Positions 5,019 to 38,851 of a DNA stretch of 44,391 nucleotides are shown here, piece by piece. How positions within the stretch are numbered: the first letter of the stretch is position 1; each line of letters starts with the position of its first letter. The position numbers and the translations under genes were made by a program. The DNA is from Escherichia phage vB_EcoS_fPoEco01: the sequence record NC_073317.1; one strand, written 5' to 3'. The notes under the pieces were generated by a model. The model saw nothing but the letters and a program-made list of their open reading frames with translations, made no database searches and was not told the origin of the DNA.

Positions 5019-5048
5019 AGGCCCCATAATGGGGCCTTAGTTTTATTT
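5019..5048. terminator. bidirectional rho-independent terminator
   Basis: Hairpin AGGCCCC-ataat-GGGGCCT flanked by T-rich tracts on both strands, between convergent genes 4556..5014 (+) and 5043..5564 (-). Confidence 0.55.
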
Positions 5049-5564
5049 AAATCGCGCAGGCATTAACACCATAAAGGCCGTGTTTGAAAATTGTATTTTG
5101 CATCCTCTGGTTTGGTCCTGGAAATCGAAACGAGCAATTTCATTTTTGTATGCCTTAGAAATCTTGTACGCGTCTGCCAAATAGCGCAGAGTGAACCCTA
5201 TACTGTCGACAACACCCGGTGTGATGTGCGCCACGCGTCTCCAGTCAGGAAAGTTTCCTTCTACAACATCTACCGGAAGTGTACATATAAGCGCACGATT
5301 ATCGTCATAGAAAGATACACTGCCGTTGTCGTGGTTTACCTCTGCGTAGTTAAATTTAGAAGGCTCTCTCCCTTTGATGTCTATGAGAGTCCCTTTCTCA
5401 ACGTTGGTCTTCACATTGTCGCAGAACAATCTATGACCGTCCGTAGACACTATCAATCCTTCAGGGTCTATGTAAAAAGCGTTCAAATAGTAGCGAACAT
5501 CATTTTTAGCCCTGCATATTTTCGCCCCTACATACGCAGGGAAAGTAATTACTGTAGTAACCAT
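5043..5564 (-). CDS. hypothetical protein (moron on opposite strand)
   Basis: 173 aa ORF antiparallel to the structural module; own SD AGGAGA, own class I promoter at 5592..5620 and terminator at 5019..5048. Confidence 0.5.
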   Translation of the reverse strand: MVTTVITFPAYVGAKICRAKNDVRYYLNAFYIDPEGLIVSTDGHRLFCDNVKTNVEKGTLIDIKGREPSKFNYAEVNHDNGSVSFYDDNRALICTLPVDVVEGNFPDWRRVAHITPGVVDSIGFTLRYLADAYKISKAYKNEIARFDFQDQTRGCKIQFSNTAFMVLMPARFK

Positions 5565-5591
5565 TTATCATCTCCTGTTTAAGTTAACCGA

Positions 5592-5620
5592 ATAGTACCC
5601 TATTATATTGGGGTGTGCAA
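5592..5620 (-). promoter_or_regulatory. class I sigma70-like promoter (TTGCAC-N17-TACTAT) with embedded AATAG-N4-CTATT palindrome
   Basis: Reverse complement reads TTGCACACCCCAATATAATAGGGTACTATTC; near-identical to elements at 15039..15067, 37339..37367 and 38792..38820. Confidence 0.55.
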
Positions 5621-5686
5621 ACTATTTGTTTACGTATTCCAGTTATTCCACTCAATTGTAAACGTTGGAATAAACTATTCGAATAG

Positions 5687-5715
5687 TTGACTTTTCACTG
5701 AAAATATGATAAGCT
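5687..5715 (+). promoter_or_regulatory. sigma70-like promoter (TTGACT-N17-TGnTAAGCT) driving structured RNA element A
   Basis: TTGACT at 5687..5692, extended -10 TGaTAAGCT at 5707..5715; same architecture at 37030..37058. A CTATTCGAATAG palindrome abuts the -35. Confidence 0.5.
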
Positions 5716-5829
5716 CCACCTGAGCTTGTGAAGTATGAACAAGCGACCGCGGCGCGGGCAGGTAACGGAGCGGGACGTAAGTCCTGAGTGTAGTTACGCT
5801 GACGCGTTCGGAAGGGCCATACTCTATTG
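5716..5829 (+). ncRNA. candidate structured RNA element A (promoter-proximal; paired with copy at 37059..37173)
   Basis: About 115 nt highly similar to 37059..37173 with compensatory changes preserving two stems (GUAAC/GUUAC vs GGAAC/GUUCC; GGAC-GUAA-GUCC vs GUGCC-AUUA-GGCAC) and a conserved hairpin GCUUGU...ACAAGC; no ORF. Confidence 0.45.
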
Positions 5830-5895
5830 CTTGTGTAAAAAGTAACTGGTTTACTGAGATTACGCCGTTTCTATGTTTAAATGATAAGGACTAGC

Positions 5896-5919
5896 GCCCC
5901 GCTTTAAGGCGGGGCTTTA
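5896..5919 (+). terminator. rho-independent terminator downstream of RNA element A
   Basis: GCCCCGC-tttaag-GCGGGGC followed by TTTA; lies between RNA element A and the Rz start. Confidence 0.5.
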
Positions 5920-5939
5920 CTTATCGAGAAAGGGGAAAC

Positions 5940-6326
5940 ATGAATCTTAAAGCAACTGTCGTAGCCGGAGCATGTTTCGTCGTCCTAGCCTACGCACACG
6001 GCATCTATCAATACCGCAGCGGCTGGGGTGAAGGCCGTGCTAATCTCGTTTCGCAGCAACAGCAGAAAGCACAGGCTGAGCTGACGAAGAAAACACAACG
6101 GCAGCAGCAGGATGAATCAAAGGCCGCCGCCGCTGACAACGAAGGCAAGACGAAATCAGAGGTGATTACCCGTGAAGTCGTTAAGTACATTAAAACGCCT
6201 GGCCGCAGCGTGTGCACTTTCGACGATGCTCGCGTCCTGCTCAAGTCCCACGCCGTTGCCAACGCCAATTCCATCCCCGGATACGACGATGATGCAGCCG
6301 CCGTGCAAACTGGCACCGCCAAGTAG
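5940..6326 (+). CDS. Rz: i-spanin (Rz-like)
   Basis: 128 aa; N-terminal TM segment (ATVVAGACFVVLAYAHGIY), Gln/Lys-rich coiled-coil-like periplasmic region, C-terminal Cys; contains an embedded +1-frame lipoprotein ORF. Confidence 0.65.
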   Translation: MNLKATVVAGACFVVLAYAHGIYQYRSGWGEGRANLVSQQQQKAQAELTKKTQRQQQDESKAAAADNEGKTKSEVITREVVKYIKTPGRSVCTFDDARVLLKSHAVANANSIPGYDDDAAAVQTGTAK

Positions 6327-6435
6327 CGACGCTGACGAGGATTTAGCTATCGACGTTCAGAACGCCGAATGTGTACGGCAACTGAGACTGAAAGTGTTCA
6401 TGTTGCAGGATTACGTGAGGAATATTCTGGAATAG
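6172..6435 (+). CDS. Rz1: o-spanin (Rz1-like lipoprotein) embedded in +1 frame of Rz and extending beyond it
   Basis: GTG start with SD GAGGTGA; signal peptide with lipobox LAS-C followed by proline-rich mature region (CSSPTPLPTPIPSP...); classic Rz/Rz1 nested architecture. Confidence 0.6.
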   Translation: MKSLSTLKRLAAACALSTMLASCSSPTPLPTPIPSPDTTMMQPPCKLAPPSSDADEDLAIDVQNAECVRQLRLKVFMLQDYVRNILE

Positions 6436-8271: not shown

Positions 8272-8287
8272 GGTTAAGATATAATCG

Positions 8288-31181: not shown

Positions 31182-31210
31182 ACTATAATAGCTAACTATT
31201 CAGGTGTCAA
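31182..31210 (-). promoter_or_regulatory. class II promoter (TTGACA-N17-TATAGT) with AATAG-N4-CTATT palindrome
   Basis: Reverse complement TTGACACCTGAATAGTTAGCTATTATAGT in the 87-bp gap between 31215..32456 and 30495..31127. Confidence 0.55.
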
Positions 31211-33799: not shown

Positions 33800-33829
33800 A
33801 CTATAATAGTGAACTATTCACGTTGTCAA
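33800..33829 (-). promoter_or_regulatory. class II promoter (TTGACA-N18-TATAGT) with AATAG-N4-CTATT palindrome, divergent from cro-like gene
   Basis: Reverse complement TTGACAACGTGAATAGTTCACTATTATAGT; AATAGTTCACTATT is a perfect 14-bp palindrome. Confidence 0.55.
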
Positions 33830-33893
33830 TGGGCTTTTCTAAAATAATTAATATGGTACTATTCACATATCAACTGACTAAGGAGTAATTGAC

Positions 33894-36743: not shown

Positions 36744-36922
36744 TTCACGTTCTCCTTAATCCACGCTTCAACTTTATTGCGGTCGAATGTCCCTGGTAAA
36801 CGGCGGCCCATAACCTTAATACAGCAATCCGGGAATTTGCCACTGCGCAACCAGTTATTAATTGTCTGACGTGTCACCCCGATACGTTCAGCTACTTCAT
36901 TCTGGGTCATGTAATGCTGCAT
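36740..36922 (-). CDS. small HTH DNA-binding protein (AlpA/excisionase-like)
   Basis: 60 aa from ATG 36922 (SD GGAGAT); MTQNEVAERIGVTRQTINNWLRSGKFP helix-turn-helix. Confidence 0.55.
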   Translation of the reverse strand: MQHYMTQNEVAERIGVTRQTINNWLRSGKFPDCCIKVMGRRLPGTFDRNKVEAWIKENVK

Positions 36923-37029
36923 TTTTATATCTCCTGTTTGTTTAGTGGAACCGAGTATAGGATAGCGGGAATGTAAAAGCAACCAAAACTGAACACAAAG
37001 TTACTAAGATGCAAAAGATGCTACTGGTA

Positions 37030-37058
37030 TTGACTTTTACTTAAAAATATGCTAAGCT
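37030..37058 (+). promoter_or_regulatory. sigma70-like promoter (TTGACT-N17-TGnTAAGCT) driving structured RNA element B
   Basis: TTGACT 37030..37035, TGcTAAGCT 37050..37058; same architecture as 5687..5715. Confidence 0.5.
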
Positions 37059-37173
37059 TCACTGAGCTTGTGAGATATCGCAAGCGACCGCGGAGCGGCA
37101 GGGAACGCAACGCGTGCCATTAGGCACTTGAGTGTAGTTCCGCTGGCGCTTTCGGAAGGGCCAAAGTCTATTG
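37059..37173 (+). ncRNA. candidate structured RNA element B (second copy of element at 5716..5829)
   Basis: See element A; shared core GAGCUUGUGA...CAAGCGACCGCGG...GAGUGUAGUU.CGCUG.CGC.UUCGGAAGGGCCA with compensatory substitutions in two stems. Confidence 0.45.
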
Positions 37174-37338
37174 TTAATCCCGCCTAAATACCCAAGCCAC
37201 TGATAATTAAAAGTTTCTATAGTTGCCGTAAGCAAGGTAGAGAGTACTTCACTCCGCTGGGGTGGGCTAACGCCCACCCACTGCGTTGCGTACTCTTTTA
37301 AGAAACGAAAGAATCACAACGGCAACGTAACTATTTTC

Positions 37339-37367
37339 TTGCACACCCCAACATAATAGGATACTAT
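37339..37367 (+). promoter_or_regulatory. class I promoter (TTGCAC-N17-TACTAT) with AATAG-N4-CTATT palindrome; start of rightward early operon
   Basis: TTGCACACCCCAACATAATAGGATACTATTCAC, 25 nt upstream of the first early ORF. Confidence 0.55.
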
Positions 37368-37392
37368 TCACTTATCGAAACGAGACAGATGA

Positions 37393-37590
37393 GTGAGGGT
37401 TATGTTTAGGAAGGGTCAGTTGGTTAAAGCCGTAGATTATTATTATAGTATTGTTGAAACAGAGTCTGTCGTTTTTCCCGGAACTTATAGGGTGCGTTTT
37501 CTCGTGAAAAGATTAGGTGCGGTAGATTGGTTCCGTGAAGACGAGCTAACACTCATCGGCAACAATTTTAAATTCAAAGGGGCGAAGTGA
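37393..37590 (+). CDS. hypothetical early protein
   Basis: 65 aa (GTG start; ATG at 37402 possible). Confidence 0.4.
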   Translation: MRVMFRKGQLVKAVDYYYSIVETESVVFPGTYRVRFLVKRLGAVDWFREDELTLIGNNFKFKGAK

Positions 37591-38791: not shown

Positions 38792-38820
38792 TTGCACACT
38801 GGGATAGAATAGGCTACTAT
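38792..38820 (+). promoter_or_regulatory. class I promoter (TTGCAC-N17-TACTAT) with AATAG-N4-CTATT palindrome
   Basis: TTGCACACTGGGATAGAATAGGCTACTAT upstream of repeat-containing ORF 38852..39034. Confidence 0.55.
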
Positions 38821-38851
38821 TCATTTACACAAACGAGAGGAGAGGCAGAAT

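Follow-up and report, generated by a model that had tools for sequence, protein, structure and literature searches.

Evidence for a Structured Leader RNA Family at the Head of the Structural Operon in Guernseyvirinae Phages

The structural operon of Escherichia phage vB_EcoS_fPoEco01 is preceded by a non-coding, folded leader RNA element of 108 nt, which lies directly after a predicted promoter, keeps its fold through compensatory base changes, and is conserved above the neighbouring coding DNA. Comparison with related phages gives good support to its being a new, undescribed family of structured RNA spanning the Guernseyvirinae of E. coli and Salmonella. A role in antitermination is plausible by analogy: our leading reading, held tentatively and at less than even confidence, is that of a cis-acting RNA resembling the put sites of phage HK022, which would make the transcribing polymerase resistant to terminators. 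Both polymerase binding and any effect on termination are what we infer from that analogy.

The window, by which we mean the whole stretch of 44,391 nucleotides analysed (record NC_073317.1), is the genome of a Kagunavirus (Guernseyvirinae; K1G-like virulent siphoviruses of E. coli), with near-identical Kagunavirus matches returned by megablast of positions 5400-6400. Around the element it is collinear with phage fFiEco02, whose annotation is the source of the gene map: structural genes (spanin, scaffold, capsid, connectors, tail) on the plus strand at ~5.9-25.9 kb, replication genes on the minus strand at ~26-37.4 kb, and small early genes, lysis genes, terminase and portal on the plus strand from ~37.4 kb wrapping to ~5.0 kb. 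A module composed of a promoter (TTGACT-17-TGnTAAGCT) and ~110 transcribed bases is present twice, copy A heading the first plus-strand block (the structural operon, ~20 kb) and copy B heading the second (the early operon). The two copies align from the -35 hexamer through ...TCTATTG (5687-5829 vs 37030-37173), and the similarity ends on both sides. This agrees with an earlier, sequence-only reading of the same DNA, which had described a repeated block heading two rightward units; copy B was also recovered (E = 5.7e-19) by a covariance model from which it had been left out. The minus-strand gene at 5043-5564, between the terminator of the upstream operon and copy A, is variable cargo: close relatives encode a "beta-clamp domain" or "RusA-like" protein at this position, SETP13 encodes an endonuclease VII, and K1G has nothing.

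The promoter of copy A (5687-5715, plus strand) consists of a -35 hexamer TTGACT at 5687-5692, a 17-base spacer and an extended -10 element TG-a-TAAGCT at 5707-5715; that of copy B (37030-37058, plus strand) has TTGACT at 37030-37035, a 17-base spacer and TG-c-TAAGCT at 37050-37058, so that the sequence is as first described in both copies. The copy A promoter is conserved at 0.93, its core is identical in copy B, and the record of phage fBC-Eco01 has a promoter annotated at its place. A simple consensus promoter scan listed neither promoter, because TAAGCT matches TATAAT at only three of six positions; the evidence for a promoter is thus the -35 hexamer and its spacing, together with the extended -10 TG and the conservation, and transcription is predicted to start near G5722 in copy A and near 37064 in copy B. 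In the Jerseyvirus promoter, a second copy of the -10 hexamer TACGCT follows at a distance of exactly 9 bases (e.g., ER21 585-615); this second TACGCT is the 5' strand of the first hairpin of the leader (stem I, below) and overlaps the predicted start. Such a -10-like repeat at the start is the arrangement behind sigma-dependent promoter-proximal pausing at lambda PR'; in fPoEco01 the key A is missing from the second hexamer (TGAGCT).

Upstream of copy A, and absent upstream of copy B, lies an array of TTATTCC repeats (5634-5673): GTATTCC at 5634-5640, TTATTCC at 5643-5649 and an inverted GGAATAA at 5667-5673. The array is conserved at 0.91 across 32 loci, and Jerseyvirus and phiEap-2 have the same array (ATTATTCCAGTTATTCC...GGAATA...ATTCC) ahead of their homologous promoter. 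A perfect 14-bp palindrome, ACTATTC/GAATAGT (5674-5687), abuts the copy A -35 hexamer in the manner of an operator and is absent at copy B. The repeats are probably transcription-factor sites, and 5634-5687 a candidate binding region for a late-gene regulator; because of the repeats, their conservation in Jerseyvirus and phiEap-2, and the palindrome, the late promoter is probably also controlled by a DNA-binding protein. A tRNA-Ser that RefSeq places on the minus strand of phage ER21 (444-522) seems doubtful; it covers the upstream gene's 3' end and the upstream terminator hairpin and reaches into the first part of the TTATTCC region.

The AATAG/CTATT half-sites of the palindrome recur in a second promoter class, TTGCACACCCCAAyATAATAGGrTACTATTC, in which an inverted repeat AATAG-N4-CTATT covers the -10 element. 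Its sites lie at 5620-5590 and 15067-15037 on the minus strand and at 37339-37369 and 38792-38822 on the plus strand, and related cores are found at 31185-31200, 33803-33818 and 33848-33863 (minus strand). The same sequence has been given as the "phage RNA polymerase promoter" consensus for fBC-Eco01 (PMC9825357). Because the annotation of the near-identical phage fFiEco02 holds no RNA-polymerase gene, these are more likely sigma-70 promoters carrying an operator than promoters of a phage polymerase.

From the predicted start, both copies (copy A, 5722-5829; copy B, 37064-37173, 110 nt; both plus strand) share the same minimum-energy architecture: a hairpin from +3, two unpaired bases, an irregular hairpin of 65 nt and an unpaired tail, with fold z scores against shuffles of -2.6 (copy A) and -3.7 (copy B). 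Stem I (5724-5744; 37066-37085 in copy B) is a 5'-terminal hairpin GCUUGU/ACAAGC with the loop GAAGUAUGA, in which a tandem G·A/A·G of copy A becomes G-C/A-U in copy B. Stem II (5747-5811; 37088-37155) has a lower helix CCG-C-GGCGCG/CGCGUU-CGG with two invariant G·U pairs and a GG/A internal loop above it, a middle part CAG-GUAAC/GUUAC-G-CUG followed by an asymmetric conserved loop 5'-GGAG/3'-AGUGUA, and a variable apical hairpin CGGGAC-GUAA-GUCCUG (5771-5786). The conserved 3' tail AAGGGCCAUACUCUAUUG (5812-5829; 37156-37173) is purine-rich (AAGGGCC...UCUAUUG). The paired substitutions first noted between the copies are real (GUAAC/GUUAC vs GGAAC/GUUCC; GGGAC-GUAA-GUCC vs GUGCC-AUUA-GGCAC; and the shared hairpin GCUUGU/ACAAGC). 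Of the two segments described as invariant and single-stranded, GAGUGUAG and UUCGGAAGGGCCA, both are indeed invariant, but UUCGG is paired: its UU forms the two conserved G·U pairs and its CGG closes the long stem. Just past the tail, the 5' strand and first loop bases of stem I recur (GCUUGUG; 5829-5838 repeating 5724-5732); Jerseyvirus has the same after-tail repeat of its stem I (GCUUUCAG twice), though the sequences of the two clades differ, and copy B is without it. A different helix, in which the full-leader fold paired the 5' end with the tail, was rejected, being absent in copy B and with the variation at tail position 101 uncompensated, as was a tRNA-like 3' CCA, which is unconserved (Jerseyvirus has GGGCCG or GGGUCG).

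A pattern scan of IMG/VR gave 21 distinct versions of the element, which fall into types A and B and an additional type C, and the covariance model (R1) was built from the type A and C sequences only. It matches copy A with 137.9 bits (E = 1e-32) and copy B with 84.3 bits (E = 6e-19). When 24 distinct sequences of the three types are aligned to the model, 98.7% of cells pair, compared with ~32% when the 3' partners are shifted by 1-3 columns, and five pairs change on both sides, two of them with three Watson-Crick states (C-G/A-U/U-A and U-A/G-C/A-U); these figures come from few lineages and from an alignment fitted to the model.

The Jerseyviruses of Salmonella widen this comparison. In blastn searches, the matches to most Jerseyviruses begin only at the element's 3' end, and their loci hold a very divergent element in the same place. 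The idea that most of them carry a deleted element is refuted: the full-length divergent form was found in 265 of 268 Jerseyvirus-type records, with partial coverage in the other 3. Model R1 matches the Jerseyvirus element end to end (E = 1e-8 to 3e-6), even though stem I is wholly replaced (UACGCU-UUC-AGCGUA vs GCUUGU/ACAAGC), with three of its six pairs changed on both sides. In the combined alignment including Jerseyvirus, 96.5% of cells pair, against 30-37% in shifted registers, and 14 of 29 pairs are changed on both sides; covariation in related phages, on which the sequence-only reading had made its proposal of a structured RNA depend, is thereby found. In the phiEap-2-like and Cornellvirus phages, related hairpins occur together with the same 3' motif, arranged in tandem rather than nested, and their elements are probably homologous. 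Ahead of the spanin gene and after the element, these two groups also have a further, distinct stretch of conserved leader (CUUACGGCAACAAUGAUUAUUAGUGUGYUGCCG ... GGGGUUCGCUUUAGGCUACCCCC; 1310-1400 in phiEap-2, 1340-1420 in Cornellvirus), which is possibly another structured RNA.

What stays constant across the types is not the helices as such. The lower helix keeps the form CCG-C-GGYGCG/CGCRUU-CGG with its C bulge and two invariant G·U pairs, and the GG/A loop, the asymmetric loop (5'-GRAG/3'-AGYGUA) and the tail (AAGGGYC...CUAUUG) are likewise fixed, both tail motifs being kept in types A, B and C and in the Jerseyvirus type. The size of the apical hairpin is also constant, but its sequence and its loop are free to change (GUAA, AUUA, GUCA, GUUAA, CACA, CGCA). 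This pattern of fixed bulges, loops and tail against freely changing helices points to recognition by a macromolecule rather than to the role of a plain hairpin. Over 32 A-type loci, conservation forms a plateau of 0.91-0.995 across 5642-5960, where neighbouring coding DNA reaches 0.73-0.93, and within the region conservation peaks in the element (0.97-0.995). In Kagunavirus and Salmonella phages alike, the element is better conserved than the coding DNA beside it, as would be explained by a host partner that is itself conserved. The block might instead be conserved at the level of DNA, with operators of a phage regulator flanking or overlapping the promoter and the RNA fold incidental. The second promoter class does share AATAG/CTATT half-sites with the flank of the -35 hexamer and with the block's 3' end (…AGUCUAUUG), and the TTATTCC repeats lie upstream, yet the 14 pairs with compensatory change on both sides and the retention of helices while their sequence is replaced between genera are not what such sites predict, and the invariant G·U pairs would become C·A in RNA from the opposite strand, which makes the fold specific to the plus-strand RNA. 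Covariation thus largely refutes an explanation by DNA alone, which we consider very improbable, although DNA sites may coexist with the RNA.

That the element is non-coding needs some comment, since copy A does hold a 36-codon ATG open reading frame (5735-5845, plus strand), contrary to the initial statement that no ORF is present, and this frame is a "hypothetical protein" in several GenBank records of Kagunavirus and Jerseyvirus (e.g., the Bas70-76 phages and BPS11Q3_5), so that CDS features lie under the match. A small protein-coding gene is nevertheless the least credible of the explanations weighed here and can practically be dismissed: the frame is broken by 1-base indels in four near-identical variants, copy B has no start codon, and the substitutions preserve pairing, not codons. 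Because of the frameshifts and the absence from copy B, we regard the element as non-coding, as first stated, and the annotation as an artefact. A leader mini-ORF (UUG-CUU-GUG-UAA after an SD-like GGAAGGG) was also rejected, its UUG being UCG or CUG in K1G, NCTh5 and one other relative.

Nor did the element match a known family. The covariance-model search that had been proposed was run against Rfam 15 and found none: there were 0 matches at the gathering threshold in the whole window and, at E <= 1-10 with both leaders and four relatives, only chance matches far below threshold. A blastn search of HK022 with both copies gave only chance 10-13-mers, and R1 had no match to the HK022 put sites, which lie at 28311-28238 (minus strand) and from ~29462 of the HK022 sequence and were numbered after PMC9378689. 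With the boxA consensus GYTCTTTAANA (PMC5725501), no site with up to two mismatches was found on the plus strand in 5722-5940 or 37064-37400, and matches in the window as a whole were at chance level. This, together with apical loops that vary freely and are not boxB-like, upholds the initial view that the sequences match neither boxA nor boxB. Among 5,426 E. coli genomes there was no homolog of the element, in host or prophage, and no target-like match. The ten early ORFs, compared with PHROGs, included no Q, N or other regulator and matched only families of unknown function. The literature on transcription in these phages comprises gene-level RNA-seq (PMC12645636) and in silico promoter lists (PMC9825357), and the Kagunavirus and Guernseyvirinae transcription literature searched makes no mention of the element; with no Rfam match either, "undescribed" seems a fair description.

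Downstream of copy A, a terminator-like hairpin (GCCCCGC-UUUAA-GGCGGGGC, 5896-5915, plus strand) is followed by the U-tract tail UUUACUUAUC, which extends to 5925. Its 8-bp stem has seven G-C pairs, it qualifies as a predicted intrinsic terminator, and as the top-ranked terminator-like site of our scan it confirms the terminator first placed here. The hairpin lies 67 nt past the element and 15 nt before the start of the spanin gene (ATG 5941), precedes every gene of the operon, and is conserved at 0.95. Its Jerseyvirus counterpart is kept by compensatory change (GCCCGGC/GCCGGGC vs GCCCGAC/GUCGGGC) but has no U tract and is not terminator-like (ER21 was scanned; in the other Jerseyvirus-type leaders read, the tail is identical or nearly so). 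The 1-20 kb region has an excess of terminator-like sites (36 vs 21.5 ± 4.1), with strong ones on the plus strand within the operon at 8287 (after the capsid gene), 12494 and 13196. An attenuator, in which the element would pair with the 5' half of the terminator, was rejected, only 4-5 G+C pairs being possible and these being unconserved in Jerseyvirus.

The second copy proved to be less general than the first. It occurs in only ~40 of the 179 phage records holding a copy-A-type element (about a quarter), and in K1G and SETP13 its position is occupied by a strong promoter unrelated to it, so that the comparison originally drawn with a nutL/nutR-style pair does not hold generally. Because of this distribution, copy B looks like a promoter-plus-leader module transplanted as a unit; and since the -35 hexamer and the end of the tail are the exact limits of the copied unit, the sequences suggest that the module is self-contained. 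In the early leader, copy B is followed by a G+C-rich hairpin (GGGUGGGC-UAAC-GCCCACCC, 37258-37280, plus strand) with no U tract directly after it, and by a promoter of the second class (TTGCAC-17-TACTAT, 37339-37369, plus strand), before the first early ORF, which starts on the plus strand at GTG 37393 or an internal ATG 37402. A non-coding stretch of 235 bp that contains this hairpin and promoter (window 37194-37428 vs K1G 36898-37132) is 95% identical between phages with and without copy B; since it is common to K1G, which has no copy B, the early leader itself is conserved and structured.

With respect to function, a put-like modifier of polymerase ranks first because of the analogy and the layout. 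Under this proposal, the leader RNA would emerge from host RNA polymerase that had started at the element's own promoter and fold into two adjacent hairpins and a purine-rich tail, and the folded leader would then bind the elongation complex and make it resistant to pausing and termination, so that only polymerases from this promoter would read through the terminator at 5896-5915 and the internal terminators of the ~20-kb structural operon. The HK022 put RNAs work by this logic, and the Kagunavirus layout of promoter, element, terminator and genes is that of the put, N and Q systems, in which terminators are ignored only by polymerases that have transcribed the element. The put RNAs bring about terminator read-through in cis without protein factors, which is blocked by mutations in the rpoC zinc-binding domain. 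The likeness to put extends to a cis-acting RNA made directly downstream of a sigma-70 promoter, with terminators and a long operon after it; to two adjacent hairpins, as in putL, from ~+3 (relative to the predicted start at 5722; a generic feature), the second with conserved irregularities; and to the lack of a recognised dedicated protein and the presence of two related copies in some phages. The irregular middle of put stem II is reported to contact polymerase (Hwang et al., PMC9378689). The element differs from put in having no sequence or covariance-model similarity to it, a length of ~108 nt against ~73 nt and a conserved single-stranded tail, and in heading a late (structural) operon of virulent siphoviruses rather than the early PL and PR operons; it falls outside the put family as defined by ~70 nt and the core GAACGGC...CGGG.GC.CGGCG.G.UCA.GGAUGA.

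In favour of a put-like element we count a real, strand-specific structure beginning at ~+3, in which irregularities rather than helices are conserved; the order promoter, element, terminator, first gene and the excess of terminator-like sites in 1-20 kb; and the modular copying, the high conservation and the lack of a Q or N homolog among the ten early ORFs. The proposal is weakened by the absence of similarity to putL and putR, by the generic nature of two adjacent hairpins, and by the tolerated loss of stem II, which in rare natural variants is wholly deleted between two 11-nt direct repeats (AGCGUA-CCGCG): carriers are Jerseyvirus UPWr_S1 (MT588083, 1180-1230) and SLMP1 (NC_073208), and because of them stem II is taken to be dispensable for growth in the laboratory. 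These phages are ready-made mutants of the element. Since the Jerseyvirus leader hairpin lacks a U tract, its read-through cannot be a role common to the family. It also counts against a put-like element that many phage late operons show partial read-through of their internal terminators in the absence of any antiterminator, and that a protein partner would be compatible with the data, most early proteins being of unknown function.

The strongest competitor, in our view unlikely though by no means negligible, is a 5' UTR role in stability or processing, whereby the 5'-terminal hairpin would protect the long late mRNA from 5'-end-dependent decay, as in ompA, and/or stem II would be an RNase III signal, as in T7. 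Stem I lies 0-3 nt from the predicted start in every clade, recalling the hairpins within a few bases of the 5' end in ompA-type leaders, and RNase III signals are cleaved at a defined site in an irregular hairpin of ~20 bp or more; stem II, with ~23 base pairs and an asymmetric 4/6 internal loop, has the general form of the T7 sites (e.g., R0.3 in the early leader), irregular hairpins in which an asymmetric internal loop separates an upper from a lower helix and which likewise lie in the leader of host-polymerase transcripts of a virulent coliphage, and its predicted form is compatible with such a signal. In Jerseyviruses the module improves nothing that is terminator-specific, and the loss of stem II is tolerated. 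However, a stabiliser needs only a hairpin, and the ompA-type hairpins are simple, whereas the element continues in a 90-nt domain with bulges, loops and a tail conserved across genera, which would be left unexplained; there is no sequence relation to the T7 signals, to which the conserved tail and the 5' hairpin are foreign. A stand-alone small RNA of ~200 nt (5722 to ~5920), acting in trans on host or phage targets like the lambda 6S/oop-type short transcripts, is a considerably weaker candidate and seems quite improbable: the Kagunavirus promoter is strong and followed by a terminator ~195 nt downstream, and the whole leader to the spanin start is highly conserved, but no terminator follows the element in Jerseyviruses or directly follows copy B, inspection revealed no complementarity to the downstream leader, and the E. 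coli genomes held no homolog or target-like match.

A protein-dependent site like lambda nut, at which a phage or host RNA-binding protein would recognise the loop and tail and load onto polymerase or mRNA, we judge rather improbable. It would account for the conserved irregular features and tail, many early ORFs have no known function, and in phages with two copies these stand at the early and late operons, much as nutL and nutR (boxA plus boxB, N-dependent) are paired leader sites heading two operons with a hairpin in each. The boxB element is a hairpin with a conserved purine pentaloop that is recognised by the N protein, whereas the apical loop here is unconserved (GUAA, AUUA, GUCA, CACA); moreover, neither leader has a boxA, no N or Q homolog is found among the ten early ORFs, and the second copy is optional, most phages having a single one. 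The lambda PR'–qut–6S RNA–tR' region is similar in having a strong late promoter, a leader of ~200 nt and a terminator, followed by lysis and structural genes. Lambda Q, though, acts through DNA and a sigma-dependent pause and not through a conserved RNA fold, the ten early ORFs include no Q homolog, and a -10-like repeat at the start site occurs only in the Jerseyvirus version (TACGCT twice).

To our knowledge, very few systems of protein-independent antiterminator RNA exist, chiefly the put RNAs of HK022. If the put-like reading is true, a second, unrelated RNA of this kind would be present in common, easily grown, therapeutic-type coliphages, where it would offer a new handle on the control of polymerase by nascent RNA, explain how a 20-kb operon is expressed with host polymerase alone, and provide a compact expression cassette for synthetic biology. 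In its boldest form, which is possible but which we regard with some doubt, the element would be a third independent class of RNA, after put and EAR, that binds and reprograms bacterial RNA polymerase alone, driving the entire structural operon in virulent siphoviruses of E. coli and Salmonella as a portable cassette that in some of them also stands before the early operon. Even if its role should be one of stability or processing, the element is a new and well-supported family of RNA that more than 440 deposited phage genomes carry, where annotation pipelines currently show a "hypothetical protein" or a blank.
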